NCBI GenBank assembly: GCA_902783725.1
Contig: CACZRV010000037.1
Location: 1-56,476 of the forward strand
Source: an uncultured Lachnospiraceae bacterium
Lineage (GTDB): Bacteria; Bacillota; Clostridia; Lachnospirales; Lachnospiraceae
Direction: 5' to 3'
Length of the DNA stretch: 56,476 nucleotides
Under the pieces are notes generated by a model. The model saw only the letters and a list, made by a program, of their open reading frames with translations, had not been told where the DNA came from and searched no databases. Positions 4,629 to 43,416 of this stretch are shown in pieces (within the stretch, counting starts at the first letter, position 1; each line of letters starts with the position of its first letter). Made by a program: the position numbers and the translations under genes.

Positions 4629-4633
4629 TACAA
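4605..4633 (+). promoter_or_regulatory. Sigma-A-like promoter for mntP
   Basis: TTGACG (4605-4610), 17 nt spacer, TACAAT (4628-4633) with a TGa extended -10. Confidence 0.55.
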
Positions 4634-4691
4634 TGACGGCAGTCTAACGTCGGGGGAAAAGCCTCCGGCAACAGAGAGGAAGTCGGAGTAT

Positions 4692-18852: not shown

Positions 18853-19287
18853 ATGTTCAAACGAGTAGCTCCGTATATCGGGGAGTACCGCAAATATACG
18901 ATCCTGGCCGTCATATTTATGGCGGTCGGGATCGTGGCCAATGTGGCCCCGTATTTCTTTCTCTATCAGATCATCGCGCCGCTCTCGGGCGGCGAGCAGC
19001 AGCGCATCTCCATTGCGCGCTGCATTCTCAAGGATTCGCCCATCGTCATCCTCGACGAGGCGACAGCCAGCGTGGACGCGGACAATGAGCGGGCCATCCA
19101 GGAGGCCATCTCCGAGCTGTGCCGCGACAAGACACTTCTTGTCATCGCCCACCGCCTGAGGACGATCCGCGACGCGGATCAGATCCTCGTCATCGCGGAC
19201 GGACAGATCAGGGAGAGCGGCACGCACGACTCCCTGATGGCCGCGAACGGCGCATACGCGCATCTGGTGGAGCTGCAGGCGTCGTGA
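18853..19287 (+). pseudogene. Internally deleted ABC exporter gene (in-frame fusion of first TM segment to the signature-motif/C-terminal end of the NBD)
   Basis: The 144-aa product starts like an ABC exporter TMD (…[30 protein letters not shown]). It jumps directly to [32 protein letters not shown]…LLVIAHRL. Five TM helices, Walker A and the Q-loop are missing. Confidence 0.7.
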
Positions 19288-19333
19288 GCAAAAGAATTCC
19301 GACATGTTGAGACAAGGGTGATATGGGATAGGA

Positions 19334-19363
19334 GAAGCACTGATTCGTCAGTGCTTCTTTTTT
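19334..19363 (+). terminator. Intrinsic terminator
   Basis: GAAGCACTGA-ttcg-TCAGTGCTTC followed by TTTTTT. Confidence 0.85.
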
Positions 19364-19381
19364 ACGCAAAGATAATCATAC

Positions 19382-19442
19382 TTGACGCGCGTCAAATAAA
19401 ATGATACTATGTTGGCAAGACAATATTTGACGTGCGTCAAAT
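19382..19442 (+). promoter_or_regulatory. Promoter with two palindromic operators (TTGACGCGCGTCAA and ATTTGACGTGCGTCAAAT)
   Basis: Palindrome 1 (19382-19395) contains the TTGACG -35 element. A 17 nt spacer leads to TACTAT (19405-19410) with TGa extended -10. Palindrome 2 (19425-19442) lies just downstream of the predicted start site and before the GAGAGGAG SD. Confidence 0.65.
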
Positions 19443-19456
19443 AGAGAGGAGAAGCC

Positions 19457-20284
19457 ATGAACGGAACGGTATGGAGAGAGAAGCAGGACCTGACATATCT
19501 TAGATGGTCCCATATGCGCAATTCCAGCGGTACAGTCGGGACGTTCCTGAAAGCGGAATCGTCGCTGTCCGGGGAGAAGATATATTATAAATTGTCCAAT
19601 TTTGATCCGGTGAGGGGAGTGGTCGGACACGAGTGTGTCAACGAGATTATCGTGGATCGATTGCTGACAATTCTTGGCGTTGAGCATTTATCGTACGATT
19701 TGATCCATGCGGACATCCGCGTGGATGGAAAGACGTACGAGACGTACCTTTGTGCTTCTGCGGATTTTAAGGAGCGCGGCGAGAGCAAGGTGGCGCTCGA
19801 TGACTATTACCGTCTCAATGCGCTGCCCGGGGAATCGCACTACGATTTTTGTGTGCGAAACGGTTGGAAGGATTATGTAGATACGATAATCGCAGTTGAT
19901 TACATCATCCAGAATCGTGACCGGCACGGGGCCAACATTGAGGTGCTGCGCAATGCAAGAGCGCACACCACGAGAATTGCTCCGTTGTTTGATCACGGAT
20001 TGTCGCTTCTGTATTCCTGTGCGACGGACGAGGAAGCAAAGAAGTTTGATGCCATGGCGGACCGGAAATGTCAGAATTTCATCGGCACTTTTTCCTGCAA
20101 AGACAATCTGAAACTGTTGGGAGGCCGGAAAGACATTTTTCCGGGGAAATTGCAGAAGAAGGACAAGGCGACTTTGTTAGCAGGACTGGACGGCGTGCTG
20201 TCGGAGACATTCCTTGAGGCGATCTGGCGCATGATCCACAAGCGATACACATCGTTGGAGAGTGAAATCAATGAAAACGTATGA
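19457..20284 (+). CDS. Short HipA-like serine/threonine kinase (HipA_C-type core only)
   Basis: 275 aa. Catalytic-loop-like IIQNRDRHGANIEVL (D-x-H-x-x-N) and Mg-binding-like IAPLFDHGLSL correspond to the HipA motifs. A Gly-rich segment NSSGTVGTFLKAE sits where the HipA P-loop sits. The ~150-aa HipA N-terminal subdomain is absent. GC is lower than the flanks. Confidence 0.65.
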   Translation: MNGTVWREKQDLTYLRWSHMRNSSGTVGTFLKAESSLSGEKIYYKLSNFDPVRGVVGHECVNEIIVDRLLTILGVEHLSYDLIHADIRVDGKTYETYLCASADFKERGESKVALDDYYRLNALPGESHYDFCVRNGWKDYVDTIIAVDYIIQNRDRHGANIEVLRNARAHTTRIAPLFDHGLSLLYSCATDEEAKKFDAMADRKCQNFIGTFSCKDNLKLLGGRKDIFPGKLQKKDKATLLAGLDGVLSETFLEAIWRMIHKRYTSLESEINENV

Positions 20285-21068
20285 GATTTATGATCAGGAA
20301 AATGACCTGTCGATTGGCGTATTGCTTTGCTACGAGAAGGAAAAAAGCTTTGTCATCGAGCTTGCACCGGATCTTGACGAGTGGACGGCGCCGCTTCTTC
20401 TGACTGCATTGGTCAAACACGGCGTATACACGATACCCCGGGACATCAGCCTCCTTTGGGTAAAAGGACGGGTAGTTCCGAGCGAGCGGCAGAATATTCA
20501 GGCAATCCTGTCTGCACATAAGCTGAAGGAGTATGACGAGATGAAACTGCTGGAGATAACCGAAGGACGATGCCCGCAGGACAGCATGATCATCCGCAAA
20601 ATCGACTCCCTGCCAGGATATGTTACGGAGCGCAGGAAGAAGAATCTAACGGATTGTCTGGTGTCGAACCATGACTACTGGATTTGCTTCTTTGCGGATG
20701 ATACGGTCCGGAAGGTGAGTTTTTTAAAGCTGTGGAGCAATGAAGAACTGCGGCTCCCGGACAAGCCGGAATTGCTCCGCTCCGCCAAGGTCGGTACGGA
20801 CGGCTATTGTGTGACACTTGACGATACTTATGATATTCCGGCGTCAGTGCTGTACGAGACCGGAACCTTGATCCCGCTGAGGCCGGATGACTTTACTTCT
20901 TACGTCACGAACAATGTGCTCGATACCTCGCAGAGCTGTGAGTTGCTCGAGTGCTCGCGGCAGAATCTGTCCTACCTGATCAAACAGGGCCAACTTCAGC
21001 CAATCCGTGAGGAAGTGAAGGGCAGCTTGTTCCGCAAGGGGGATATTTTGCGGAAAATGCAGGACTGA
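20271..21068 (+). CDS. Kinase-associated protein with C-terminal excisionase/MerR-like HTH (candidate antitoxin/regulator)
   Basis: ATG at 20271 follows a GGAGAG SD and overlaps the kinase gene by 14 nt (an alternative GTG is at 20262). C-terminal LDTSQSCELLECSRQNLSYLIKQGQLQPIREEVKGSLFRKGDIL is an HTH_17-like motif. The N-terminal ~200 aa have no obvious known domain. Confidence 0.6.
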   Translation: MKTYEIYDQENDLSIGVLLCYEKEKSFVIELAPDLDEWTAPLLLTALVKHGVYTIPRDISLLWVKGRVVPSERQNIQAILSAHKLKEYDEMKLLEITEGRCPQDSMIIRKIDSLPGYVTERRKKNLTDCLVSNHDYWICFFADDTVRKVSFLKLWSNEELRLPDKPELLRSAKVGTDGYCVTLDDTYDIPASVLYETGTLIPLRPDDFTSYVTNNVLDTSQSCELLECSRQNLSYLIKQGQLQPIREEVKGSLFRKGDILRKMQD

Positions 21069-21090
21069 CCCGGCGAACAGGAAGTCGGAA

Positions 21091-21119
21091 TTGTTTTTCT
21101 CTGGAAAATGTGCTATACT
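21091..21119 (+). promoter_or_regulatory. Sigma-A-like promoter for the ZIP transporter gene
   Basis: TTGTTT, 17 nt spacer, TATACT with TGc extended -10. Confidence 0.5.
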
Positions 21120-26086: not shown

Positions 26087-27121
26087 CTAGTACAGGCTTC
26101 CGGAGTTGACCACCGGCTGTGCGTCGTGGTTGCCGCAGAGCACTACCAAAAGGTTCGAAACCATGGATGCCTTGCGCTCCTCGTCGAGCTCGACGGTCTT
26201 GTTCTCGCTGAGGCGGTCGAGGGCAAGTTCCACCATGCCTACCGCGCCGTCCACGATCATCTTCCGAGCGTCGATGATGGCGGATGCCTGCTGGCGCTGA
26301 AGCATTGCCGCAGCAATCTCCGGTGCGTAGGCGAGGTATGTGATGCGCGCTTCGTGGATGCGAAGACCCGCAACGGCCACGCGATCCTGGATCTCCTGAC
26401 GGATGCGGTCCGCCACGATCTCGCTGGAGCCTCTCAGGCTGCCCTCGTCGGCGATGCCGTCGCCGGTGGTGTCCACGCCGGGCGCCACGTCATAGGGGTA
26501 GATCCGGACAATGTTCCGAAGCGAGGTGTCGCACTGCAGCGAGAGATATTCCTTGAAGTTCTCCACGTTGAAGACAGCCTTCGCGGTGTCTCCGATGCTC
26601 CACGTCACGGCGATTCCGATCTCCACCGGCGTACCGAGGCGGTCGTTGATCTTCTGACGGTTGTTGTTGAGCGTCATCACTTTAAGAGAGAGCTTGTTGT
26701 TCGGCAGACCGAAGCCCGCTGCGGAGGAGAGCGTCACAGGCTCGATGGTCTTGACGTCGCCGCTCTGGTTGAGCTGCGTCTTCGCCGCCGGGTTGATGGA
26801 CGAGCAGAACGGGTTGACGAAGAAGAAACCGTCGCCGCGGATCGTGCCGTAGTAGCGGCCGAACAGCGTGAGCACCAGCGCTTCCTGCGGCTTCAGAACC
26901 CGCAGTCCCAAAAGCGGTAACCAGCCGAAGCTGACGATTGCCGCGCCGATCACGATCAGCGGAACGTTGAGCTCGACACAGCCGTACGTGAGTGCCACAA
27001 CGCCGGCCAGGATCAGCAGCAGTGTGAGAAAGAACGCGAGCATGCCGTGTTTCTTTCCGTCCAGAGTAATCTCCTTGCACTCGTTGTTGATAAATGTTAC
27101 TTTCCTGTCATTCGTTTCCAT
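26087..27121 (-). CDS. SPFH/Band 7 (stomatin/prohibitin-like) domain membrane protein
   Basis: 344 aa. N-terminal hairpin of two TM helices, then an SPFH-like core (…[24 protein letters not shown]…) and a C-terminal coiled region [18 protein letters not shown]. Confidence 0.75.
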
Positions 27122-27287
27122 AGGATACCTCCAGTATAGTTTCCGAAACGTTTATAAAGATAATGTTACCGGCCGCAGTCTTGCACAAGACCCCGTTGTT
27201 TCGACCGACGGTGATATCGTTTTGATATCATCTTGAAACTAAAATACCACGATTTTTCGAAAATGTCAACACCATTTAACAAAAAGC

Positions 27288-27316
27288 TTGAAAAACATTT
27301 ACCATTTTGCTAAAAT
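27288..27316 (+). promoter_or_regulatory. Sigma-A-like promoter
   Basis: TTGAAA, 17 nt spacer, TAAAAT. Confidence 0.5.
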
Positions 27317-27370
27317 AAGCGAAAGGACGGCAGCGGTTCACTTGTCGTCCGGAAAATGGGGGTAATTGTC

Positions 27371-28717
27371 ATGGGGAGTACGAGAAGCAAAATAATGGTT
27401 GCGTGCATCTGCGCCGTGGCGCTGGCTGCAGGGGTGGTTTTATTTTTCGCACTTCGGGACCGGAATGATATCAAGGAAACGGTCAGAATTCCGGAGGTGC
27501 CCGAGGGAAGCGTGCTGATCTGGTGCCTGACCGAGGAGTACGATGTCGATGAGAACGGGAAGCAGCAGCTTCTGTTCGAAAGCAAATACGACGACACCGG
27601 CCGGTGTGTCTCCGCGAAGCACTATGTCCTCGGGGGAACGACTTCGAAGGCGGAGAAACTCAGTTACGAGTATGATCTGAAGACTCATTACATCCGCGAG
27701 GTCATCCTGGATGAGGGGCTGGTGATGTATGAGACCATCGATTCTGCGGGCAGAACGAGGGATCTGCGGTACCAGACCGTCGAAAAATCCGGCGCGCTCG
27801 GCGGCGGCAAGATGTATGTGCTGGATGAGAATGCGAGATTTGTCTCGGAGACCTTCTATAACGAAGAGGGTGCCGAGGAGAGCAAAAGAACGCATGATTA
27901 TGATTCCTGCGGTTACGAGATCAGCAGAATCCGGATTGACATAAAAACCGGCGAAGAGCAGGTTGTGAGACGGGCGGAGCTTGATGATCGGGGCAGAGCT
28001 CTGCGGATTTACGAGCGCGACTACGATTCGCCGGAGGAAAAACTGATTCTGGAAGCGGAGTACGCTGCAGACGGCAGCCGACTGGAGCGAAGCTACACGT
28101 ACGATGACTCCGGGAATCCAAGGATCAAGGAGTACAACGCAAACGGAGATCTGGTTACCGATATCATTTACCGCGAGACGGACGACGGCGGGATTCAGAC
28201 AGACAAAACCGTGATCGTGTACAAGGACGGTCGGGAAGCGACCAAAACCGTGTACCTCGATGATGAGATCTCGTCGGTGACGACAACCGTGTATGAGCAG
28301 GGGGATCACAGCAGCACCGTGACTGTTACGGAGGAGTACACCAACATCTACGGGGAGAAGATCAAGCGCGTCAAAACCGAGACCTGCCGCTATTACGGCG
28401 ACAGCCTGCCGGAGGAGGAGAAGTACGAAAACCGGGAGATTCGAAGCTATACCCTGGGGGAGAACGGAGTGAGATACGGCGAAGAGATCACCCTCTATGA
28501 GTTCAAGTACGACGAGTACGGCAACCGCATCGCCTACCGGAAGACGAAAACCGCAGACGGTGAAACCAGGTACTGCCACGGCGGATGCTACGTCTACAAG
28601 CCGATGGTGATCACGAAGGAACAGGCTGCGGAAAATGCAGAATTTTACGACTATCACTTCCACCAGGTTCTGGACGAGGTCAGCTCGAAAGACGCGAACG
28701 AGGACTGGATCTGGTAG
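27371..28717 (+). CDS. Membrane-anchored protein built of YD/RHS-like repeats
   Basis: Start MGSTRSK after GGGGG (an alternative ATG is at 27356). One N-terminal TM, then repeated Y-D-x-x-G-R/N units (YDDTGRCV, LDDRGRALRIYE, YTYDDSGNPRI, YDEYGNRIAY). No recognisable C-terminal toxin or RHS core cap. Confidence 0.6.
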   Translation: MGSTRSKIMVACICAVALAAGVVLFFALRDRNDIKETVRIPEVPEGSVLIWCLTEEYDVDENGKQQLLFESKYDDTGRCVSAKHYVLGGTTSKAEKLSYEYDLKTHYIREVILDEGLVMYETIDSAGRTRDLRYQTVEKSGALGGGKMYVLDENARFVSETFYNEEGAEESKRTHDYDSCGYEISRIRIDIKTGEEQVVRRAELDDRGRALRIYERDYDSPEEKLILEAEYAADGSRLERSYTYDDSGNPRIKEYNANGDLVTDIIYRETDDGGIQTDKTVIVYKDGREATKTVYLDDEISSVTTTVYEQGDHSSTVTVTEEYTNIYGEKIKRVKTETCRYYGDSLPEEEKYENREIRSYTLGENGVRYGEEITLYEFKYDEYGNRIAYRKTKTADGETRYCHGGCYVYKPMVITKEQAAENAEFYDYHFHQVLDEVSSKDANEDWIW

Positions 28718-30581: not shown

Positions 30582-32347
30582 ACGGCACCTCCTTCCGCGA
30601 CCGCAAGGCCCGAGGCCGCCGCAATCTCGCGGTAGACCGGGCAGGTCGAGAGAAGTTCGTCGTGGGTGCCGTTGCCAACCAGCTCCCCGTCCTCGAGGAC
30701 GAGGATGCGGTCGCACCCCGTGAGGGCGCCGGCGCGCTGGGAAACATAGAGAACGGTCCGGTTGCGCTCCTCACGAAGCGCGCGGCGAAGCTTCTGCTCC
30801 GTCGCATAGTCAAGCGCCGAGCCGGAATCATCCAGGATCAAAATGCGTGCGTCGGTGACGAAGGCGCGGGCGATGGTGAGACGCTGCCGCTGGCCGCCGG
30901 AGAAGTTGCTGCCGCCCTTGGAAACCGGGGCGTCCAGCCCTTCGGGGAGGGCGCGCACAAAATCCGCCGCACAGGATTTTTCGAGAGCCGCCCAGAGTTC
31001 GTCGTCGGTGGCGTTCGGATTTCCGAAGAGGAGGTTGCTGCGCACCGTGCCCGCGAACAGCACCGCCTTCTGCGGAACCACGCGGACCGCAGAGCGAAGG
31101 GAATCGAGGTCATACTCGCCGACGCTGCGGCCGAAGACGGAAAGCGCTCCGTCCGTGATATCATAAAATCTGGGGATCAACTGCACAAGCGAGGTCTTGC
31201 CGGAGCCGGTACCGCCGATGACGCCGACATATTCTCCCGGGAAGATGTCGCAGGAGATGTGCGAGAGCATCTCCGACGAGGCCTTCGCGTAGCGGAGCGA
31301 GACATCGCGGAAGGAAACCACCGGCGCGGCGACGCCTTCTTCGGAAGAGGCGTCGGCAAATGCATCCGCGTCCACGGGGATCGCATTTTCCGGCGAGACC
31401 ACGGAAGGGGTGATCTCAAAGATGCTCTGTACGCGGTTGCCGCAGGCCACAGCGCGGGTAATATTGATGATGAGGTTCGCGAGCTTCACAAGCTCGACGA
31501 GGATCTGGCTCATGTAGTTGTAGAGAGCGATGACCGCGCCCTGGGTGAGAAGACCGGCCTCCACGCGGAGTGCGCCGGTGTAGACTAAAAGAAGGATCGC
31601 CAGGTTGACGAGGCAGTAGGTGAGCGGATTGAGGAGGGCGGAGACACCGCCGACGGTCCGCTGCTCGTGCTCAAGTTCCTTCGTGCGGTCGCCGAAGTCT
31701 TTGCGCTCGGCGGCTTCCTTATTGAACGCCCGCAGCACGCGCACGCCCGCGAGATTGCGGCGAAGCGCGCCGACAACGCGGTCCAGACGTTCCTGGACGC
31801 GGCGGTACAGAGGGATGCTGATGAGCATGATCGCGAAGATGACGATCGCGAGAATGGGGATCAGGCCGGCGAAGACAAGGGCCGCGCGGTGATCCACCGT
31901 ATAGGCCATGACAGTGGCGCCCAGAACGATGAACGGCGAGCGCATCAACAGACGGAGCGTCAGATTCACGCCGTTCTGGATCTGGTTCATGTCGCCGGTG
32001 AGGCGTGTGATGAGGGTGTCCGTTCCGATGGTGTCAATCTCCGTGTAGGAGAGCGTGCCGAGATGCTTGAAAAGGGCGCGGCGGATCCGGCCGGTGAACG
32101 AGACGGCGACCTTCGCGGAGAAGTACTGCGCCGTGACGGCAAAGGCCAGTCCCGCGACACCGAAGAGAACCATCAAAAGAACGCGACGCACGATGAAGCC
32201 GCGGTCGCCCTGCGCGATGCCGGTGTCAATTATGGAAGCGACGATCAGGGGAACCAGAAGCTCCATGACCGCCTCGAAAAATTTGAACAGCGGAGCGGCC
32301 ACGGCCCGGAGCCGGTAACCGTCCATAAAGCGAAGTAATTTGCGCAT
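30578..32347 (-). CDS. ABC exporter, fused permease/ATPase subunit
   Basis: 589 aa. Walker A GGTGSGKTS, signature FSGGQRQR, ILILDDSGSALD. Confidence 0.85.
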   Translation of the reverse strand: MRKLLRFMDGYRLRAVAAPLFKFFEAVMELLVPLIVASIIDTGIAQGDRGFIVRRVLLMVLFGVAGLAFAVTAQYFSAKVAVSFTGRIRRALFKHLGTLSYTEIDTIGTDTLITRLTGDMNQIQNGVNLTLRLLMRSPFIVLGATVMAYTVDHRAALVFAGLIPILAIVIFAIMLISIPLYRRVQERLDRVVGALRRNLAGVRVLRAFNKEAAERKDFGDRTKELEHEQRTVGGVSALLNPLTYCLVNLAILLLVYTGALRVEAGLLTQGAVIALYNYMSQILVELVKLANLIINITRAVACGNRVQSIFEITPSVVSPENAIPVDADAFADASSEEGVAAPVVSFRDVSLRYAKASSEMLSHISCDIFPGEYVGVIGGTGSGKTSLVQLIPRFYDITDGALSVFGRSVGEYDLDSLRSAVRVVPQKAVLFAGTVRSNLLFGNPNATDDELWAALEKSCAADFVRALPEGLDAPVSKGGSNFSGGQRQRLTIARAFVTDARILILDDSGSALDYATEQKLRRALREERNRTVLYVSQRAGALTGCDRILVLEDGELVGNGTHDELLSTCPVYREIAAASGLAVAEGGAV

Positions 32348-32572
32348 GAAACAGAATCCCTCTTTGTTGTGGTGAGTGCTGCCTCCCTAATAATACCTAT
32401 TTTCCGAAGAAATCGCAAGAGGTCGTTATACTGCTGCACGCAGCCGTATGGTTTACCTGCGGTTTGTACAAGAAATCTTTCGCAAATAATTGACAAACCA
32501 GTTTGTTTGTGTACAATGTGTTATACAGTATTGTTGCAATTCGGCATGAATTATGCTGTTGTGGGGGATTAC

Positions 32573-33175
32573 ATGAAAAAGTTAATACGAATCAGTATAC
32601 TTGCAGGTGTTCTGCTTTTTTTCTGTGCATATTTTATAATTTTCATAGTTTTTTCTGTAACGTGGGATCTTACGGATGTCACGTTATCCAAAATTTCACC
32701 GGAACTGTTCGAGTTCCATCAATATCAAAAATATCTCACAAATGATTCTCAACAACAATTTCTGATTGGCGAAGCTCAAGGAAGCGATATGGAGCACTAT
32801 TCTCTTGAGGATTACCTTGAGGTTACAATCTCTGTTTCCTGTAATTCTCGCGTGCCCTCGTTATTGCAAGGAGTTTTCGGAGCACGGAATCCAATGATAA
32901 TTCTTTCAAACCGGAATAAACTGCCGGAGAGGTTGATTTACTGCGATGTCGGAGAGAATGAATCGCAGGAGTTTCTCGGTGAGGAGGATCCGTGTATGTT
33001 TACAATGTTCTTCTTTGTACAGGGACTGACTCCGGAAGAAGCAAATACATATATTTCCGATGCTCTTTCAAAACTTGAGTTTTCCTTGATTTACGAGCAG
33101 GAATTTTTCGGATCGAGGGAGAGGACGATTTGTTTTTCAAACGAAGCAACTCGAAAGATTCATTCGATTGACTGA
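32573..33175 (+). CDS. Single-pass membrane protein, paralog A of an unknown family (low-GC island)
   Basis: Start MKKLIR after GGGGGA. One N-terminal TM. Shares blocks FIVFSVTWDLT, CNSRVP, LPERLIYCD, GLTPEEANTYI and FSLIY with the protein encoded at 34056..34649. Confidence 0.6.
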   Translation: MKKLIRISILAGVLLFFCAYFIIFIVFSVTWDLTDVTLSKISPELFEFHQYQKYLTNDSQQQFLIGEAQGSDMEHYSLEDYLEVTISVSCNSRVPSLLQGVFGARNPMIILSNRNKLPERLIYCDVGENESQEFLGEEDPCMFTMFFFVQGLTPEEANTYISDALSKLEFSLIYEQEFFGSRERTICFSNEATRKIHSID

Positions 33176-33260
33176 AACTGTGCTGATAATCGGGACTTGG
33201 AGTACAACGGAACAGGCACCGGTTCCTTTGTAATACAAAAAATTTTAAGGGGGATTTAAA

Positions 33261-34037
33261 GTGAAAAGATTTAAAAAGATGATGTGTGCGGCGCTTGTTG
33301 CTGTAATGGTTGTCTCCACGGGAGCGCAAGCGAAGGATTATGACGGTTCTAAGGCCGGAAGGTATGCAGACGATCACGCAGATAAGAATTCTTATAATCC
33401 TGAATATCCGGCGTTTGATTCAGATTGTACGAATTTTACGTCGCAGTGCATTGTTGCTGGTGGATTTCCGACAATCGGATTACCGTTGTCGGAGGCAGTA
33501 AAATGCTACAGAATTTTCAGAAGACCGTCAGTATATCACTCATATGCCTATTTCTCGTATGTTTGGTATCAGACAATCCGGGATTATGTTGCAACAACAC
33601 CCTGGACAGTTGCGGGAGCAGCCAGCGGCGACAGTTTCTTTGGGTTTTGGGATTATGTGAAGTATAAAGGGGCTTCGCCAAGAACGTACTACTTCGGAAA
33701 CGACAGCACATATCAACAGAGATTGGAGGAGCTGATTAATCTTGCGGAAGTCGGAGATATCATTCAGATATCACATGTTTCGGACTCGAAGACAGCAAAC
33801 CATAGCTACATAGTTTCCAGAAAGGAAATTGAGAGGACGGTTGATCCGCACCCGGGGAAGAGACATATTTATGTTTGTGCCCATACAAGCAACAGAAGAA
33901 ATGACGACTTTGAACTTCTCGTTACGAAAAATCGGGCAAAGGATGGCGCTGCAATCAAAAAGACTGACACGGTGTATTTGTGGCGAGTTACTGCTATGAA
34001 TATGAACGAGATGGCAAAGAAGAAAGTATACAAATAG
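33261..34037 (+). CDS. Secreted putative amidase (Amidase_6 / NlpC-P60-superfamily cysteine hydrolase)
   Basis: GTG start after AAGGGGGA. Signal peptide …VVSTGAQA. YNPEYPAFDSDCTNFTSQCIVAGG is the characteristic Cys motif of the 'putative amidase domain' family, with a downstream …TANHSYIV His motif. Confidence 0.65.
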   Translation: MKRFKKMMCAALVAVMVVSTGAQAKDYDGSKAGRYADDHADKNSYNPEYPAFDSDCTNFTSQCIVAGGFPTIGLPLSEAVKCYRIFRRPSVYHSYAYFSYVWYQTIRDYVATTPWTVAGAASGDSFFGFWDYVKYKGASPRTYYFGNDSTYQQRLEELINLAEVGDIIQISHVSDSKTANHSYIVSRKEIERTVDPHPGKRHIYVCAHTSNRRNDDFELLVTKNRAKDGAAIKKTDTVYLWRVTAMNMNEMAKKKVYK

Positions 34038-34055
34038 AATTGTTCAGAGGATTTT

Positions 34056-34649
34056 ATGAAGAAGAAAATAATCGTTTCATGCGGCATTGTAGTTCTGGCG
34101 TTAACTGTGTTTGTTTTACGGTTCATTGTGTTTTCGGTTAGCTGGGAATTGACAAGCGCTAAAACAGCGAGCATGCCGGAATATCTGTTTGATCTGGAAT
34201 TGTATGCTCGTTACAACGGTTCGAATGAACAGAACTTTTTTATCGAAACAGCCGAAGGAAGTGACATTAAGCTGTATGCGGCACAAGACTATTTGCTTGC
34301 GAACATCGTTGTGCAATGTAACAGCCGTGTTCCGGGTGTGTTGCGGGAGTTTGTCGGTGAACAGGAGCCAAAGATTGTTTTATGCAGAACTGACTTGCCG
34401 GAGAGATTGGTTTATTGCGATGACGGAGACGGGTCCGACAGTTCCTTTGCGGAACCGGACTCGCCATGCTCGATTCTCTTCATTTTCTTCATAAAAGGTA
34501 TGAGCAGGGAAGAAGCAGATAGTTATGTCCGAAATGCTATTGCCAATATGAAATTCTCGTTGATATATGTACAGAATGGATTCGGTGCCAGAGAGCAAAG
34601 CGTTCACTTTTCAGAAAAGGACTTAAGTATTATGCGTTCCGAAGAATGA
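34056..34649 (+). CDS. Single-pass membrane protein, paralog B of the same unknown family
   Basis: 197 aa, AGAGGA SD. Roughly 35-40% identical by eye to the 32573..33175 product over its full length, with the same conserved Cys positions. Confidence 0.6.
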   Translation: MKKKIIVSCGIVVLALTVFVLRFIVFSVSWELTSAKTASMPEYLFDLELYARYNGSNEQNFFIETAEGSDIKLYAAQDYLLANIVVQCNSRVPGVLREFVGEQEPKIVLCRTDLPERLVYCDDGDGSDSSFAEPDSPCSILFIFFIKGMSREEADSYVRNAIANMKFSLIYVQNGFGAREQSVHFSEKDLSIMRSEE

Positions 34650-34660
34650 TTCGATTTGCG

Positions 34661-34696
34661 GCGGGTCGGAATCCTGTTTGTCCGACCCGCATTTTC
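34661..34696 (+). terminator. Intrinsic terminator (possibly leaky) inside the island
   Basis: GCGGGTCGGA...TCCGACCCGC followed by ATTTTC. Confidence 0.65.
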
Positions 34697-34722
34697 AAAA
34701 CGTATACGAATGAGGTGATGAA

Positions 34723-35388
34723 ATGTCGTTGTTCGAGCTAAATAAAGTTTGCTGTACACTTGGAGAGGGAGAGAGTCAAAAGGAAGTTTTGCGTGGAATA
34801 AGCGGAGTGATAGAGCCAGGACAAGTAGTTTCGATTGTAGGACCGTCAGGTGCAGGAAAAAGCACTTTGCTGAATGTAATGTCGGGGCTGGAACGTATCA
34901 CGTCAGGAGAAGTGCTGTACGGAGGACAGAATATCGCTGCATTGTCGGAGAAGCAGCGAGCACGGTTGCGATTAAAAGAATTCGGCTTTGTGTTTCAGGC
35001 CTTTCATTTGATTCCTTCTTTGACCGTTTATGATAACATCGTCCTACCTGTCGCGATGAATCGAAAAGCGGTTGATCGGGAGTACTATGAAGAACTGATC
35101 GACTGCCTGGGAATCAGTGGGCTGGAAAACAAAAAAGCCTTACAGATCTCCGGTGGAGAGATGCAGAGAGTGGCAATTGCCAGAGCAATGATAAATAAGC
35201 CTAGTGTTCTCTTCGCGGACGAGCCTACGGGGAATCTGGACAGTGCTAACGGTGATCGGGTTTTTTCATTGCTGATACAATGCTCAAAGTCTTTTGGTCA
35301 GACGTTAATCTATGTTACACATGATGGCGAAAAGGCTAAGCTTTCTGATGTTTGCTGGCATATTTTAGATGGGGTGGTGAGCGAATGA
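34723..35388 (+). CDS. MacB/FtsE/LolD-type ABC ATPase
   Basis: 221 aa. Walker A GPSGAGKST, Q-loop, signature ISGGEMQR, Walker B VLFADEPTGNLD (the typical MacB-type D-loop). Confidence 0.85.
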   Translation: MSLFELNKVCCTLGEGESQKEVLRGISGVIEPGQVVSIVGPSGAGKSTLLNVMSGLERITSGEVLYGGQNIAALSEKQRARLRLKEFGFVFQAFHLIPSLTVYDNIVLPVAMNRKAVDREYYEELIDCLGISGLENKKALQISGGEMQRVAIARAMINKPSVLFADEPTGNLDSANGDRVFSLLIQCSKSFGQTLIYVTHDGEKAKLSDVCWHILDGVVSE

Positions 35389-37802
35389 AAACCCGGGGTC
35401 CGGTGGGTATGTTGTTTCGTGTGTTTTTCAGTGACAAACGAAACATTTTTGTAATGATTGTTATCGGTTTGCTGGTTATGTCAGTCGGAACAATAGTTCT
35501 TTCAGCATCGGATTGCTATTTGACCGAAAAAGTTAATTCCGTGGACAGAAGGTTTGGAAAGAGTGTTCTGTCCGTGGAGTCGGATGATGCAGGGCGTCTT
35601 CTTGATGCTGCAAATGAGAATATGGTACAAGATTCGATTCTCTGCCGAGCTGAGTATTATGATGATGGCGTGAACCGTTATTTCGAAGAGTATTATGCCA
35701 CGGAAGATATTTTGGCGATGACTGCCCTTACATTGGTGAATGGACGTTTTCCGGAGGAAGAGAATGAAATTGCCGTAAGTGAATACTATCTCTTGGAAAA
35801 AGGCATAGCCGCGAGGGATATGATTGGCAGCCGCGTGAATCTCGTGCGCGAGGATAAAGAGTATATTGTAACGGGTGTTCTTCGGGATGAAGTAGCTTCC
35901 GGTGGAAGCAGCGTGTTGGAGTTTCGGGTAGTACATCCTCCGATTAAAGAGAACAATACGGTTTTTCTGGAGGTGAAGAATAAGAGAGAAATCGAATCCT
36001 TTTATGCTATTATGGATTCAAAGTATTCTGACTGTGTGTTGCGTGTTTCAATCGGGCAGGTGAGCATGCTTACGAACGAAGAAGGGGAGACAATTTTTGA
36101 AAAGATAGATCAGATTCGAATCGCCATGCTTTGTGTTGTGGTTGCTTATACAGCAGTTATTGTGCTGCTCTTTTCAAGACTGGCACACGAACGAAACAAA
36201 AAGAATATGGCAGTACTTCAGCTGATAGGGGTCGGAAGAAGACAAATACATGTCGTGTTTTTGTCGTTTCAGTTAGTCTTGTACACGGTAGGTTGCATTC
36301 CGGGAATTCTTTTAGGGGAGATCGTGGGGTCCGTGTTTTGCCATTCCAGACTGGGGTGGAGTATAACGGAATACTGGGTAAAATGTCCGTTTGGGCTATT
36401 GTTGCTTTGCTATGGAATGTGTGTAGCAGCGATTGTTCTTCTCCAGTTGCCGGCTATCGTCAGTGAAGGACGGAAGTCCGGAGCGGAAGTGTTCCGCAGA
36501 GAAGTTGGGGCGAGGAAGAAAACAGGATCCCTGTTTCAGAAAACCAATAAAGGCTACCGAAGCATAATGGTCATAAAGAATCTTTCGGAGCATCGCGGAC
36601 TTAGTTTTTTTATGTTGGCGGGTTTCGTTTTGTCAGGGGGAGTACTGGTAGTAGCGGGCTATTTTGCGCATGTTTACGCACAGCAGAAGATAACAAGAGG
36701 AAACGCACCGGATTATGCTGTTTACGAGACGCTGGATCAGGGAGATGAGACCGGCTTTGAAAACGCGATGACAGAACAGTTACTCGGAGAGTTGTCAGAT
36801 TCTGTACACAGGATGGATTACTATGTTACTACCTGTGACAGTAAAGTCCCGGAGGAATGCCTCGGAAAAGGGATGAAAGAATTGCTCTCACAGGACATGG
36901 AGCAGAAAAGACAATTAATGACGCAATCGAAAGTTGAATGTCGGGTATCGATCGTTGCTTATGACAATGAAACCATAGAGCAGGTGTCCCGGAAAGAGAA
37001 TACTCCTCCAATCGGTGACGGGGAAGCGTGGGTTTATCGATACAACTCGTCTGTCAGGAAATTTGCTGCAGAAAATAATTTCAAAAAAGGCGACACGCTT
37101 GACATCTGCTGGTGGGCTGCGGATAACAGCCGATCGGCAAAACTGAAAATACAGGGAGTGTTCGACACGCTTCCGGTCTTGTTAGATTCAGGTGAAGGTG
37201 ACATTCTGGTCGTTTTGTCCCGGAGCTATTTTGAAACACTGTTCCCTGATGTTGAGCGGAGAGCGGTATATTTGTATGCAGATGGGTTGACATCGGAAGA
37301 TGCGGAAATCCTCTTGCGGATGTATCAAATACCGGGCTTATTGATAGAACGACCGAAGGAAGATCTTCAAAATGCGAAGGAACAGGAGCGAACGATTCAA
37401 ATTGTGGTTGTTGCAGGATTTGTCTCGCTGATTTTGATGAGCTTTTTCTTAGTTGCAGGAAATGTTTTCGTCGGAGTTGTTGTCCGGGAGACCGAGTTCT
37501 GTACGTATATGGCTATCGGGGAAACCCCTTTGGGAATAACGCAAATCGCAATCGGCCACTGTGTGATCATATGCTGTGCGAGTGTTATTGTTTCATCGAT
37601 TCTTTCTTGGTTGACAACACGTTTTATGTTCTCACGTGCGTTTGGAAACAAATACCTGCCGTTTTATCAGTTTCCGGCGGGCTTGCTTTTCCTTTCTGTT
37701 TTTGCGATGCTGCTTGTTCTTCTGGGAATGGCGATCCCGGTGTGTGCGGAATACAGAAACAAACGGATCATGGAGGTGCTGAAGGCTTCGGGTCCTGTGT
37801 GA
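35385..37802 (+). CDS. Tandem (duplicated) FtsX/MacB-type permease with two large extracytoplasmic domains
   Basis: ATGA overlap with the ATPase gene. 805 aa arranged TM - ~230 aa loop - 3 TM - TM - ~250 aa loop - 3 TM, i.e. two MacB-like modules in one chain. Confidence 0.75.
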   Translation: MKTRGPVGMLFRVFFSDKRNIFVMIVIGLLVMSVGTIVLSASDCYLTEKVNSVDRRFGKSVLSVESDDAGRLLDAANENMVQDSILCRAEYYDDGVNRYFEEYYATEDILAMTALTLVNGRFPEEENEIAVSEYYLLEKGIAARDMIGSRVNLVREDKEYIVTGVLRDEVASGGSSVLEFRVVHPPIKENNTVFLEVKNKREIESFYAIMDSKYSDCVLRVSIGQVSMLTNEEGETIFEKIDQIRIAMLCVVVAYTAVIVLLFSRLAHERNKKNMAVLQLIGVGRRQIHVVFLSFQLVLYTVGCIPGILLGEIVGSVFCHSRLGWSITEYWVKCPFGLLLLCYGMCVAAIVLLQLPAIVSEGRKSGAEVFRREVGARKKTGSLFQKTNKGYRSIMVIKNLSEHRGLSFFMLAGFVLSGGVLVVAGYFAHVYAQQKITRGNAPDYAVYETLDQGDETGFENAMTEQLLGELSDSVHRMDYYVTTCDSKVPEECLGKGMKELLSQDMEQKRQLMTQSKVECRVSIVAYDNETIEQVSRKENTPPIGDGEAWVYRYNSSVRKFAAENNFKKGDTLDICWWAADNSRSAKLKIQGVFDTLPVLLDSGEGDILVVLSRSYFETLFPDVERRAVYLYADGLTSEDAEILLRMYQIPGLLIERPKEDLQNAKEQERTIQIVVVAGFVSLILMSFFLVAGNVFVGVVVRETEFCTYMAIGETPLGITQIAIGHCVIICCASVIVSSILSWLTTRFMFSRAFGNKYLPFYQFPAGLLFLSVFAMLLVLLGMAIPVCAEYRNKRIMEVLKASGPV

Positions 37803-37821
37803 CAAGCGAATAATACATTTG

Positions 37822-37852
37822 ATGCGGGCTTGTAAAGAGCCCGCATTTGTGT
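37822..37852 (+). terminator. Intrinsic terminator at the right edge of the low-GC island
   Basis: ATGCGGGCT-tgtaaag-AGCCCGCAT followed by TTGTGT. Confidence 0.65.
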
Positions 37853-37892
37853 CATAATGAAAGGACAATATCGAGAGAGGAGATATTGTGCC

Positions 37893-38558
37893 ATGATCTA
37901 TCTGGTGGAAGACGATGACAATATCCGCGAGCTCGTGGTGTACACCCTGGCGCAGTCGGGGTTGAAGGCCGAGGGCTTTGCGTTGCCGCATGAATTTTAT
38001 GAGGCGTGTGCGAAGGAACCGCCGAGGCTGGTGCTCCTTGACATCATGCTGCCGGAGGAGGACGGGCTTTCCATCCTTCGGAAGCTTCGGGCGGACCCGG
38101 CGACGAAGAAACTGCCGGTGATGATGCTGACCGCGAAGGGAAGCGAGTACGACAAGGTCGTCGGGCTGGACCAGGGTGCGGACGACTATCTGCCGAAGCC
38201 TTTCGGAATGATGGAGCTGCTGGCGCGGGTGAAGGCTCTGCTGCGGCGCTCGGAGGGCGCGCAGGAAAGCACGGAGTACCGCGTCGGACCGCTGTATGTA
38301 TGTCCGGAGCGGCACCAGGTGAGCGTCGGAGGGGATGCGGTTTCGCTTACGAAGAAAGAGTTTGATATCCTGTTGATGCTTTTGCAAAATCGCGGGATCG
38401 TGCTCAGCAGGGACAAGCTTCTCAGTACCATATGGGGATATGACTTTGACGGTGAGAACCGGACGGTGGATGTGCATATCCGGACGCTTCGCGCAAAGCT
38501 CGGCGAGGCGGGAGCGCAGATTGAGACGGTGCGCGGTATCGGGTATCGTATCCGATAG
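37893..38558 (+). CDS. OmpR/PhoB-family response regulator
   Basis: 221 aa. Receiver motifs (DD…LLDIMLP…T/A-K) and winged-helix C-terminus …VDVHIRTLRAKL…ETVRGIGYR. Confidence 0.9.
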   Translation: MIYLVEDDDNIRELVVYTLAQSGLKAEGFALPHEFYEACAKEPPRLVLLDIMLPEEDGLSILRKLRADPATKKLPVMMLTAKGSEYDKVVGLDQGADDYLPKPFGMMELLARVKALLRRSEGAQESTEYRVGPLYVCPERHQVSVGGDAVSLTKKEFDILLMLLQNRGIVLSRDKLLSTIWGYDFDGENRTVDVHIRTLRAKLGEAGAQIETVRGIGYRIR

Positions 38559-40040: not shown

Positions 40041-40712
40041 ATGGCTACGATCTTTATCATTGACGACGATGTGACAATCAACGAAATGCTCCGTACGGCA
40101 CTGACCAAGCGGGGCTTTTCCGTTGTACAGGCATTTTCGGGGACGGAGGCATTGCTTGCATTTTCCAAAGCACAGCCCGACCTGGTGCTTCTGGATCTGG
40201 GCCTGCCCGGCCTGAGCGGTGAGGACGTATTGCCGAAGCTCGGTACCGTGCCGGTGATCGTCTTAAGCGCCCGCGCCTCCGCGGAGGACAAGGTGGCGCT
40301 TCTTTTAGGCGGCGCGGTGGACTATGTCACGAAGCCCTTCGACCTTCACGAGCTGTTGGCGCGCATCACGGTGCAGCTGCGGGGGAAGGGCGCGGTCGCC
40401 GATACGGAATCCTACAGCTTCGGGGACATCGCCCTGCACGCGGACACCCGAAAGCTTGTGGCGGAGGGGCGGAGCGCACAGCTGACCCGCACGGAGGCAG
40501 CGATCTTACGGCTTCTCATGCAGCGTCCCGGCCAGGTGGTCGCGAAGCTGACAATCCTCGACTGCATCAGCCACGACACCCCGGACTGCACGGAGGATTC
40601 CCTCAAGATACACATTCACCATCTCCGCCGGAAACTGCAGTCCGTGACGGACACCGCGGTCATCGAGGCCGTGTGGGGAATCGGGTACATTTTGAAAACC
40701 GTGAAATCTTAA
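40041..40712 (+). CDS. OmpR-family response regulator
   Basis: 223 aa. Receiver domain plus a winged-helix output ending …VWGIGYIL. Confidence 0.9.
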   Translation: MATIFIIDDDVTINEMLRTALTKRGFSVVQAFSGTEALLAFSKAQPDLVLLDLGLPGLSGEDVLPKLGTVPVIVLSARASAEDKVALLLGGAVDYVTKPFDLHELLARITVQLRGKGAVADTESYSFGDIALHADTRKLVAEGRSAQLTRTEAAILRLLMQRPGQVVAKLTILDCISHDTPDCTEDSLKIHIHHLRRKLQSVTDTAVIEAVWGIGYILKTVKS

Positions 40713-40794
40713 CCGGAAAATAACGCCGGCGTTAACTGTTTTCTTAACCATTTTGCGATATGCTCCTTTCAAACAAACAAAGGGGGTTACCATT

Positions 40795-41709
40795 ATGGAG
40801 TTTGTGCTGACTACCGAAGGGCTGCGGAAGACATATAAGAATTTCAATGCCCTGAACGGTCTGTCCATGCATGTGCCCAAAGGGGCAATCTACGGCTTCG
40901 TCGGCAAAAACGGCGCCGGCAAGACAACCTTGATTCGCCTGGCGTGCGGCCTTCAGTTCCCGACGGACGGCGGGCTTACGCTGTACGGAGCGAAGCATAC
41001 GGACGTTGCGATTCACGAGGCCCGCAAGCGCATCGGTGCGGTGGTGGAGACGCCGTCGATCTTTCCGATGATGACGGCGGAGGATAATCTTAAGCACCAG
41101 TACCGGGTGCTGGGACTGCCGAATTACGACGGTATCAAAGAGCTTCTTGCGCTCGTCGGACTCGCGAACACCGGAAAAAAGAAGGCGGAGCAGTTTTCCC
41201 TGGGAATGCGGCAGCGCTTAGGCATCGCCATCGCTCTGTGCGGACATCCCGATTTCATGATCCTCGATGAGCCCATCAACGGGCTGGATCCGCAGGGTAT
41301 CGTGGATATCCGCGAGCTGATCCTCAAACTCAACCGCGAGCAGGGAATCACCATCCTGATCTCCAGCCACATTCTGGACGAGCTGTCCCGGATCGCCACC
41401 CACTACGGATTTATCGACCGGGGGCGCATCGTGCGGGAAATGAGCGCGGAGGAGCTGACGAACGCCTGCCGCAAATGCGTGAGCGTGCGCGTGACCGATG
41501 TGGATGCTCTGGTGCGTGAGCTGGAGCGCCGCGGTACGGACTACACCGTCACCGGCACGGACAGCGTGGACATCTACGCGCAGCCGAACATCACGGAGCT
41601 GGCGCTGGCGCTTTGGAAGGAAAAGTGCGAAATCCTGACCTGCAGGGAGCAGGACGAGAATCTGGAAGGCTTCTTCCTCTCGTTGGTGGGAGGTGAGAGC
41701 CATGCGTAA
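40795..41709 (+). CDS. ABC-2-type transporter ATP-binding protein
   Basis: Start MEFVL after AAGGGGG. Walker A GKNGAGKTT, signature FSLGMRQR, Walker B FMILDEPINGLD. Confidence 0.9.
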   Translation: MEFVLTTEGLRKTYKNFNALNGLSMHVPKGAIYGFVGKNGAGKTTLIRLACGLQFPTDGGLTLYGAKHTDVAIHEARKRIGAVVETPSIFPMMTAEDNLKHQYRVLGLPNYDGIKELLALVGLANTGKKKAEQFSLGMRQRLGIAIALCGHPDFMILDEPINGLDPQGIVDIRELILKLNREQGITILISSHILDELSRIATHYGFIDRGRIVREMSAEELTNACRKCVSVRVTDVDALVRELERRGTDYTVTGTDSVDIYAQPNITELALALWKEKCEILTCREQDENLEGFFLSLVGGESHA

Positions 41710-42439
41710 ACTGCTGCGAACCGATTTCACGAGACTGGTGAAAACCTTGTTGTTTTATCTGACGCTGGGCGGCGTTACGGCGATCTTTTATCTGTGCCTG
41801 TTCTTCAGTTCCGCGGGAGCGGGCGAATCCAGGGGCGTCGCCGTCTGCAACACGATGTGTTCCCTGGCGGTGCTTCTTGTTCCGCTCGTGGTCTGCGGAG
41901 CGTACATGTTGTTTGTTTCCAATGAGTTTTCGGGAGGTGCGATCCGCAACAAGCTGATCGTCGGACACCGGCGAACGGACGTGTATCTCGCCTGGAGTGT
42001 GGTCGGACTTGTGGACGGACTGATCGTAGCAGCGGTATCCGTAGGCTCCTCTGCGATCCTCATCCGGCTGTTTGCGGACACCACCGGTCTGTCGGCGAAA
42101 AAGGTAGCTGTCGCCGCAGGGATCGCTCTTTGCATGCTGATCTCCAAGATGTGCCAGAGCATCCTGCTCTCCGTGGTCTTACCGGGCGCCAAGGGCATGC
42201 TGGTCAACTATCTTTTGACCTATGCGCTTTTGATGTTCTTCGTGATCATGCAGGACACCGCGCCGGACAGCAAGATCGTTGATCTCCTTGCCCGCTGCTT
42301 CCCCGAGGGGCAGGTCACAAAGCTGAACATCTCGAAGATGCCGGACCGGCCCTGGCTGACGGTTTTGTGCGGCCTCGGATTTGCCGCACTCTGCGTGATC
42401 CTCGGAATACACGTGTTTAGGAAAAAAGATCTTTCGTAA
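41702..42439 (+). CDS. ABC-2 family permease
   Basis: Start overlaps the upstream stop by 8 nt. About six TM segments, no other motifs. Confidence 0.7.
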   Translation: MRKLLRTDFTRLVKTLLFYLTLGGVTAIFYLCLFFSSAGAGESRGVAVCNTMCSLAVLLVPLVVCGAYMLFVSNEFSGGAIRNKLIVGHRRTDVYLAWSVVGLVDGLIVAAVSVGSSAILIRLFADTTGLSAKKVAVAAGIALCMLISKMCQSILLSVVLPGAKGMLVNYLLTYALLMFFVIMQDTAPDSKIVDLLARCFPEGQVTKLNISKMPDRPWLTVLCGLGFAALCVILGIHVFRKKDLS

Positions 42440-42507
42440 GAGAACTGTGATCAAAACCGAAAGAGGCGTTGCGGCTGGCAGCGTCTCTTTTCGCGGAGGA
42501 AAATACC

Positions 42508-43416
42508 ATGTGGATTGCCGTGTCTGTCGCCCTGGCGCTTCTGTGCGCGGGGCTTACGGTGAAAATTGTATTGATGAAGCGGGCGATGAGGCAGATCGCA
42601 GCGGACTTCGGCGCGCGGATGCACGACGAGTCCGACACCTCGGTCGGTTCGCCGGACCGGGACAGGGATCTGTGCCTTCTTGTGGATGTTCTCAACCGTG
42701 AACTCCACACGATGCGCGCGACGGAGCGGACCTGCGGCAAGAGCATGGCGGAATTAAACCGCGCCGTGGCCAACCTCTCCCATGATCTGCGCACGCCGCT
42801 CACGGCGATCCGCGGATATCTGACGCTGCTTGCGGAGGCTGAGGACCCGGCGGAGCGCGAGCAGTACCGGAAGGTGCTTGCCGAGCGCACCGATGTTTTG
42901 CAGCAGCTGGCGGAGGAGCTTTTGCAATACTCGGTCATCGTCTCGGAAAATTCCTCCGGGGAGACGGAGAGCCTCTCTCTCAACACGATGCTTGCGGAGA
43001 GCATCGCGGGGGCCTATCCGATGCTCTCGGAGCGCGGGATCACGCCCGAGGTCTCCCTGCCGAAAGACCATGTGATGCGAAGAGCGAACAAAACGGAGCT
43101 CTCGCGGATGTTTTCAAACCTTTTGACAAATGCCGTCCGCTACAGCGACGGCGATCTCTCGGTCACGCTTGCGGAAAACGGCGATGTGACATTCGCAAAC
43201 ACCGCCTCCGGCCTGGATCCGGTCCTCGCCGGGCAGCTCTTTGAGCGCTTCTTCACAGTGCAGACCGGAACCCGCGGCGTGGGGCTTGGGCTTTCCATCG
43301 TCAGGACCTTAGCGGAGCGCATGGGCGGCAGTGCGGAAGCTGCGTATGCGGAAGGGAGACTGGCGGTCACGGTGCATTTTCCGAAGGAGAGCGATCCGGA
43401 AAATGCAAACATATGA
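42508..43416 (+). CDS. Small membrane-anchored sensor histidine kinase (no extracytoplasmic domain)
   Basis: Start MWIAVSV after GGAGGA. Single N-terminal TM. H-box LSHDLRTPLTAI, N-box LLTNAVRY, G-box GVGLGLSIV. Confidence 0.85.
   Translation: MWIAVSVALALLCAGLTVKIVLMKRAMRQIAADFGARMHDESDTSVGSPDRDRDLCLLVDVLNRELHTMRATERTCGKSMAELNRAVANLSHDLRTPLTAIRGYLTLLAEAEDPAEREQYRKVLAERTDVLQQLAEELLQYSVIVSENSSGETESLSLNTMLAESIAGAYPMLSERGITPEVSLPKDHVMRRANKTELSRMFSNLLTNAVRYSDGDLSVTLAENGDVTFANTASGLDPVLAGQLFERFFTVQTGTRGVGLGLSIVRTLAERMGGSAEAAYAEGRLAVTVHFPKESDPENANI

Follow-up and report, generated by a model that had tools for sequence, protein, structure and literature searches.

The window analysed here, a stretch of 56,476 nucleotides (nt) from an uncultured Lachnospiraceae bacterium (GenBank contig CACZRV010000037.1), carries a low-GC accessory island with five genes: X-A (paralog A), a secreted papain-like cysteine hydrolase of the Amidase_6 family (hereafter the amidase), X-B (paralog B), an ATP-binding cassette (ABC) ATPase and a fused double-FtsX permease. 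These genes form a genuine, rare and co-inherited cassette on horizontally acquired, accessory, mobile DNA, and the two paralogs define a previously undescribed protein family, here called X, without a detectable fold or sequence relative. The cassette, which contains family X, is a variant either of hydrolase-coupled Type VII ABC systems or of effector/immunity systems. It is most likely an antagonism module of the bacteriolysin type with self-protection; the particular arrangement that we tentatively prefer from the sequences would join a secreted amidase to a membrane-anchored immunity protein or inhibitor and to a protective layer formed by the Type VII ABC part.

Six lineages of this amidase subfamily were found: the window, P0003/L010, P0004/L011, P0005/L012, P0006/L081 and L022, a Lachnospiraceae metagenome-assembled genome from goat omasum. 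The window amidase has only four other clusters beside it, at 35–39% identity. A homologue of X lies 11–25 nt 3′ of the amidase gene in all six lineages (18 nt in the window, for X-B), and the ATPase and a double-FtsX permease of 757–809 residues (aa) follow X wherever the contig is long enough. The order amidase, X, ATPase, permease recurs across independent lineages at 22–61% identity and is seen in at least six of them, in different genomic contexts. Between cassettes, identity is 40–47% for the amidase, 24–33% for X and 22–32% for the permease, and the window ATPase is 52–61% identical to those of the other cassettes; L010 and L012 are mutually closest for every component, and the window is nearest to L013 (ATPase 61%, permease 32%, X 29–32%). 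The four parts diverge congruently. Wherever a locus includes flanks, the AT content of the cassette exceeds that of the DNA around it, and no two-component system adjoins it in L010, L012, L013 or L022. Literature searches found no description of the cassette.

Incomplete copies reveal which part lasts longest. At least seven contigs of another GC-rich species, sampled from similar sources (L013–L016), hold an intact X (P0008), ATPase and permease and no amidase; a remnant of the latter was sought by tblastn and none was found, and the upstream gene is HD-domain-like by sequence motif only. In L017 (GCA_045601665.1), an intact X stands between the C-terminal third of an amidase, whose catalytic Cys region is deleted, and an ATPase remnant of ~25–57 residues. 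In L053, a product of the metagenome project that also yielded the window, the gene of a distant secreted Amidase_6 protein of 284 aa overlaps by 7 nt that of a 200-aa single-pass protein, which aligns with X at 77% hhalign probability over 146 columns; the ATPase is truncated at 120 aa and there is no permease. X is the most persistently retained component: one lineage dispenses with the amidase, and others with the ABC part.

The pairing extends beyond the subfamily. Among eight distant Amidase_6 loci sampled, 25–30% identical to the window amidase, six have a single-pass membrane protein of unrelated sequence directly following the amidase; the loci with such pairs include L039, L043, L049/L050 and L027. 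The single-pass protein 3′ of the L027 amidase (10531–11088) has an ectodomain match to SnoaL_4 (NTF2-like; E 9e-7), a fold common among polymorphic-toxin immunity proteins. A human-gut lineage (L033–L038, L040) repeats the full architecture, with an Amidase_6 protein of 215 aa, a single-pass protein of 217 aa, an ATPase 44% identical to that of the window and an 820-aa double-FtsX permease with eight transmembrane (TM) helices (22% identity over 296 residues, E 1e-14). This L038-type cassette is preceded by a LytTR response regulator and a 7-TM GHKL (AgrC-like) kinase, and a divergent CPBP/Rce1-like membrane protease adjoins the regulators. Agr/Blp-type regulators and CPBP proteins are typical of quorum-regulated bacteriocin loci in Firmicutes. 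A decayed L038-type copy (L041, 3339–10415) has its response regulator, histidine kinase, amidase, X-like protein, ATPase and permease all fragmented, and minus-strand open reading frames (ORFs) resembling insertion sequences (3993–5148) break its two-component system.

The relationship between X-A and X-B is, judged from their alignment (40% identity, E 7e-52), far beyond chance. They are each other's closest relatives by pairwise identity, which makes the second copy a duplication specific to this lineage; each of the other cassettes has a single X, 3′ of the amidase. The family is exceedingly small: a profile built from A and B, run with HMMER across all of 1.84 billion cluster representatives, recovered seven real clusters (A, B and P0008–P0012), or about seven among 15 billion proteins. 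Searches of X-A and X-B against Pfam, NCBIfam, PADLOC and PHROGs gave no match, a word-indexed homology search with X-B returned only itself, and the X profile found nothing among Protein Data Bank (PDB) sequences. Hydropathy indicates one N-terminal TM helix in each protein. The AlphaFold2 (AF2) model of X-B, with a mean predicted local distance difference test score (pLDDT) of 86 and a predicted template-modelling score (pTM) of 0.80, places this helix at residues 2–25, ahead of an α/β ectodomain. Foldseek comparison of that model with the PDB and BFVD returned noise only, such as UNC119 (template-modelling score ~0.2) and a Microbacterium phage protein (0.38). The N-terminus is predicted to lie inside and the ectodomain outside, because the N-terminal lysines obey the positive-inside rule. 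X ectodomains are uniformly acidic, with isoelectric points (pI) of 4.1–4.6 (X-A, 4.4).

Two other identities for X were considered and set aside. That X might be a truncated MacB piece, TM1 plus the periplasmic domain, was dropped because ectodomains of MacB, LolC and FtsX were all missing from the Foldseek matches. A lipoprotein signal in X-B (IVSC, residues 6–9) was rejected, its Cys being too near the N-terminus and unconserved. A phage-defence or prophage reading was also abandoned, PADLOC and PHROGs having given no meaningful matches.

The enzyme belongs to Amidase_6 (PF12671), a family of the papain-like/NlpC-P60 clan, by a match (E 2.7e-20, 73.6 bits) that exceeds the gathering cutoff of 23.2 and spans profile positions 2–156 of 163. 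The DCTNFTSQC motif occupies residues 55–63, and C56, H181 and H208, invariant in an alignment of five sequences, are the putative catalytic residues. A Sec-type signal peptide ending in AQA, MKRFKKMMCAALVAVMVVSTGAQA, was read from the sequence. In the core cassettes, the amidase has a basic pI once mature (8.7–9.2; window, 8.7). The protein consists of a single Amidase_6 domain, and its AF2 model, of low confidence (pLDDT 61), shows short helices only. With this low-confidence query, the sole significant Foldseek match was Bacillus subtilis YjcM in 9a4p (E 2e-4); sequence and profile searches of PDB sequences gave no match. Past the Amidase_6 domain, the window protein (33990–34037) and its homologues share a conserved C-terminal helix and basic tail, which reads LLRITKADMNKMAQKK in homologues and VTAMNMNEMAKKKVYK in the window and could be a docking element. 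The B. subtilis Amidase_6 members YhbB and YjcM are biochemically uncharacterised (PMC10653849).

The ABC part belongs to the Type VII (MacB/FtsX) superfamily, clearly so for the ATPase on sequence grounds. The ATPase matches ABC_tran (E 1.4e-34), and its best NCBIfam matches are LolD, YbbA, MacB and FtsE, all under the equivalog cutoffs: 166.9 against 264.85 for FtsE (TIGR02673), 194.6 against 336 for YbbA (NF007879) and 178.1 against 254.85 for the Lactococcin-972-type bacteriocin ABC protein (TIGR03608). Its closest solved structure is YbbA (9ge6, E 1.2e-50), followed by LolD, YtrE, BceA and MacB; the top PDB matches span E 1e-50 to 1e-43 and place it within the MacB/LolD/FtsE clade. The permease matches Pfam FtsX in two stretches (E 5.3e-15) and MacB_PCD only weakly (19.9 bits, cutoff 27). 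Hydropathy gives eight TM helices in a 1+3 and 1+3 pattern, with predicted extracytoplasmic domains at residues ~40–245 (~206 residues) and 425–672 (~248 residues). Each module has the Type VII form, an FtsX-type unit of four TM helices in which a large extracytoplasmic domain separates TM1 from TM2. The permease ectodomains, like those of X, are acidic, and no significant match was found among PDB sequences, YbbP included. In one assembly of the window's species (L005, 5281–5873), the ATPase is split into ORFs of 87 and 110 aa, either a frameshift pseudogene or an assembly error.

The description of the locus given in the first-pass annotation stands in every element. It had recognised a low-GC island between GC-rich core genes, free of integrase and transposase genes; five genes on one strand, borne out here by their ORFs and by Pfam matches to Amidase_6, ABC_tran and FtsX; and two paralogs, put at 35–40% identity, of a family that it could not name. 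By its own account, its reading would have fallen had the genes not been conserved together in other genomes; they are so conserved. The island, 5,460 bp between borders set by alignment to relatives, has a GC content of 0.442, compared with 0.578 for the 10 kb on its left and 0.586 for the 10 kb on its right; in 1-kb windows, GC is 0.43–0.47 across 32001–38000 and 0.59–0.63 on both sides. Homology to L075 and L078 ends at 32354 and restarts at ~37815–37890 in the alignment, and the flanks are core genes. Within the species, the island occupies the identical place in a dozen metagenome contigs. The empty site is found in the sister species L078–L080, whose response regulator is 85% identical to that of the window: the ABC-exporter and response-regulator genes lie ~200 bp apart there, without the island, in the synteny of the window (Band_7, DUF1648, ABC-exporter pair, then response regulator, histidine kinase, response regulator and ABC).

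A closer relative, L075–L077 (regulator 96% identical), carries a different cargo of 2.9 kb at the equivalent intergenic site (window ~32355/37815–37882), encoding a Y-family polymerase (IMS), a 145-aa ORF and an AlkZ-related protein at a flank-like GC of 0.61. In L075 a segment of the response-regulator promoter occurs twice (7044–7111 and 9957–9992). The intergenic site has the look of a hotspot at which insertions recur. Two marks of a genomic island, a deviant composition and a relative with the site empty, are present; other such marks, namely mobility genes, attachment repeats and a tRNA target, are not. No integrase or transposase ORF is in the island's ORF list, and a search for terminal or flanking repeats of the island found none. 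A PhoPR-like pair of response regulator and histidine kinase lies next to the island and is also present at the empty site; it is therefore core, and was rejected as a regulator of the cassette.

The five ORFs fill the low-GC stretch in the order given in Table 1, the permease ORF overlapping the ATPase stop codon. A promoter-like site, the best in the region, agrees with the consensus at 11 of 12 positions and lies 56 nt 5′ of the ATG of paralog A. The length of X-A is counted from this ATG; gene callers elsewhere use a start that gives 219 aa.

Table 1. Coordinates of the island and its features in the window.
Feature	Position	Strand	Basis
Low-GC accessory island, whole cassette	32355..37814	.	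GC, alignment of relatives, empty site
Promoter-like site, TTGACA, 16 nt, TACAAT	32490..32517	+	Consensus match only; putative function
X-A (paralog A), 200 aa, N-terminal TM helix and acidic ectodomain	32573..33175	+	ORF
Secreted Amidase_6 papain-like cysteine hydrolase, 258 aa	33261..34037	+	Pfam PF12671
X-B (paralog B), 197 aa, directly 3′ of amidase	34056..34649	+	ORF, homology to A
Type VII (MacB/LolD/YbbA-clade) ABC ATPase, 221 aa	34723..35388	+	ABC_tran
Fused double FtsX/MacB-type permease, 805 aa, 8 predicted TM helices	35385..37802	+	Pfam FtsX, hydropathy

In the arrangement that we tentatively prefer, the small, basic Amidase_6 enzyme would be exported by Sec and act outside the membrane, its substrate presumably being peptidoglycan or a precursor of the wall. 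X, with its acidic ectodomain on the outer face, would bind and neutralise the amidase at the surface of the producer, acting as an immunity or inhibitor protein duplicated as A and B. The ATPase and double-FtsX permease would form an ATP-driven second layer of protection or handling, working by mechanotransmission and not by transport across the membrane, in a logic like that of LanI plus LanFEG or of BceAB-type target protection. This arrangement fits best because the adjacency of amidase and X is universal and extends to distant pairs that lack the ABC part, because X genes occur duplicated and orphaned in the decay pattern described above, and because the DNA is acquired and the human-gut relative has bacteriocin-like regulators. 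As in effector/immunity pairs, the genes are adjacent and co-directional, the small partner lies, by predicted topology, where the enzyme acts, and orphan or duplicated candidate immunity genes and decay of the toxin are seen, if in few cases. In such pairs, the immunity gene is usually kept while the toxin decays. The complementary charges of the basic amidase and the acidic X ectodomain would be weak evidence in the same direction. By analogy, a survey of papain-like enzymes that ties Amidase_6 to amidase effectors of the Tae3 type (PMC10318531) supports an antagonistic role, and the match to YjcM, whose modelled partner in 9a4p is its gene neighbour YjcN, may cautiously be counted alongside.

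Several points weigh against an effector guarded by X. What the amidase cuts, whether it is toxic, its binding by X and what the ABC part does are all inferred. The amidase lacks the cell-wall-targeting domain found in most secreted bacteriolysins, and we know of no bacteriolysin with a protein inhibitor plus a MacB-type ABC system as its immunity. Bacteriolysin immunity, where known, is FemABX-like modification of the wall (PMC8538875). The argument from charge is weakened by the permease ectodomains, which are acidic as well, the window cassette has no quorum-sensing regulator, and the decay pattern comes from one lineage each for L013, L017 and L053. Strict operon order and congruent divergence fit a single physical complex equally well.

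Such a complex, a machine whose ABC part docks or gates the hydrolase on the model of FtsEX–PcsB/CwlO/RipC or YbbAP–TesA, is the main rival, somewhat less probable than the preferred arrangement. The permease ectodomains would then hold the soluble amidase, with X as a tether, adaptor or latch; ATP hydrolysis might activate the enzyme, or might extract and present a membrane-embedded substrate; and the target would be the cell's own envelope, in remodelling, autolysis or turnover of lipid-linked amides. Besides the conserved operon order and the congruence with which the four components diverge, a docked enzyme is suggested by the kinship of the ATPase, whose closest solved relative is YbbA, since YbbAP binds a Sec-exported soluble hydrolase that has no anchor (PMC12646458), and by the small membrane cofactors SweC and SweD that FtsEX–CwlO requires (PMC6705773). 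The amidase, having no wall-binding domain, would diffuse away from a monoderm if undocked, and its conserved C-terminal helix and basic tail (ITKADMNKMAQKK-like) could provide the docking element. The partial cassettes tell the other way: X and the ABC part are intact without an adjacent amidase in at least seven contigs, an amidase and an X-like protein are kept without a functional ABC part in L053, and X alone outlasts its decayed partners in L017. Sister species do without the system, which makes it no housekeeping function, and there is no coiled-coil regulatory domain. The partial cassettes only weaken the case for a docked machine. An FtsEX-like mechanotransmitter that activates the amidase had been the headline idea of the first-pass annotation, with inhibitor or immunity roles for the paralogs in a toxin/immunity cassette as its alternative. 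The alternative better fits the partial cassettes, whereas the headline idea finds no support in the defining features, given the fused permease, the FtsE score under its cutoff, the missing coiled coil and the accessory status of the locus.

A bolder combination, which we consider rather improbable, would have X keep the exported amidase latent on the fused 8-TM MacB-type permease until ATP-driven mechanotransmission releases, fires or gates the enzyme. If true, monoderms would possess a new class of Type VII ABC machine, a mobile, energy-controlled launcher of a wall hydrolase and not a passive toxin/immunity pair.

We give still less credence to a cassette that confers resistance to an antimicrobial peptide or lipopeptide from outside, in the manner of Nsr plus NsrFP or of BceAB, in which the ABC part would shield or free a membrane target, X would bind the compound as LanI does and the amidase would degrade it. 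The retention of X and the ABC part without an amidase in L013–L016, the closeness of the ATPase to BceA, YtrE and PsdA among its solved relatives, and the accessory, patchy distribution are consistent with such a role. Yet it leaves unexplained the near-universal adjacency of amidase and X, which includes distant pairs lacking the ABC part, and the regulator that accompanies the L038 cassette belongs to the AgrC/LytTR type. The possibility of a standard BceAB transporter, which the first-pass annotation had kept in view, falls away: with its 8 predicted TM helices and its pair of extracytoplasmic domains, the permease is unlike BceB (PMC12646458), and no BceRS-type two-component system travels with the island, the neighbouring pair being core. 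That the genes are chance neighbours in a composite island, with no joint function, is scarcely credible, for although no experiment links them, the idea is effectively refuted by the conservation of one order in at least six lineages at 22–61% identity and in differing contexts.

Elsewhere in the window, a second small module just 3′ of the PhoPR-like pair (40041–43416) encodes a response regulator of the OmpR type, an ABC ATPase, a membrane protein of 248 aa that matches nothing in Pfam, and a short HisKA kinase of 315 aa; because it is conserved at the empty site, it is core and lies outside the island. The first 3 kb (1–3000) have a low GC of 0.43–0.49, encode a 470-aa BACON-domain protein and a 158-aa ORF without a family, and may be a separate acquired segment. 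Milder GC dips (0.50–0.53) occur at 19000–21100 and 27000–28700; their ORFs include products of 275 and 453 aa without a Pfam match and one of 268 aa with a weak HTH_17 match.

Work on Type VII ABC systems that are coupled with extracytoplasmic enzymes is still young, YbbAP–TesA having been described only in 2025. To our knowledge, FtsEX is the only such system understood in Gram-positive bacteria. The cassette is a compact, transferable system of four to five genes that brings together an enzyme of the uncharacterised Amidase_6 family, X, a fused MacB-type permease and a candidate protein-based self-protection. Self-protection of this kind is hardly documented for secreted cell-wall-degrading bacteriocins (PMC8538875). 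As an antagonism module, the cassette would give gut and rumen Clostridia a new weapon-and-immunity logic; as an ABC-gated hydrolase, it would extend mechanotransmission to a wider range of jobs.

Compared with known systems, the cassette lies outside the FtsEX, BceAB, YbbAP and Lcn972 families. With the Tae/Tai pairs of type VI secretion systems (T6SS), it shares a papain-fold amidase gene directly followed by a small cognate gene, whose product is predicted to share the compartment of the enzyme; with pairs of this type more broadly, it shares orphan and duplicated ‘immunity’ genes, decay of the toxin while immunity stays, and acquired DNA. Membrane-anchored extracellular immunity itself has a precedent in TipC, which protects against TelC. 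Unlike those effectors, the cassette enzyme is predicted to be secreted by Sec and not delivered by a T6SS or a type VII secretion system (T7SS), and it is coupled to an ABC machine; in the PDB and BFVD searches above, known immunity families showed no sequence or fold similarity to X. LanI with LanFEG, and Nsr with NsrFP or BceAB, likewise have two layers, a membrane-anchored binder or hydrolase plus an ABC transporter, and occur as immunity-only cassettes in non-producers. LanFEG is an ABC-2 system, not an FtsX-type one, and the agent countered here would be a 25-kDa enzyme instead of the peptide of lantibiotic and BceAB modules. BceB differs further in its 10 TM helices, its one large extracytoplasmic domain (TM7–8) and its association with BceRS, the cassette island having no two-component system. 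YjcM–YjcN, in the integrative model 9a4p, offers an Amidase_6 protein modelled with the product of a neighbouring gene, and yjcN is located in an AT-rich acquired region (PMC2978689). YjcM differs in its length of 409 aa, in its 19% identity over the fold alignment and in having no ABC component.

Also comparable are FtsEX–EnvC, FtsEX–PcsB, FtsEX–CwlO with SweCD, and FtsEX–RipC, which belong to the same Type VII ABC superfamily and serve an extracytoplasmic hydrolase of the cell-wall type; in the CwlO system, SweC and SweD set a precedent for small membrane cofactors. The cassette departs from them in its permease, a fused 8-TM chain in place of the homodimer of 4-TM FtsX, in a hydrolase without a coiled-coil domain, and in its place on an accessory island that is absent from the syntenic site in L078–L080. 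By analogy, the closest mechanistic precedent is YbbAP–TesA (PMC12646458). It differs in that YbbP has 10 TM helices, where eight are predicted for the cassette permease, and shows no significant sequence match to it; TesA is an SGNH esterase and the cassette enzyme a papain-like Amidase_6 protein; and the cassette has the additional single-pass X and a monoderm host. What the two systems share is an ATPase for which YbbA is the best solved-structure match (9ge6), a single-chain permease with an internal duplication and two extracytoplasmic domains, MacB-like in YbbP and possibly so in the cassette, and a Sec-exported, anchor-less hydrolase encoded beside the transporter genes.

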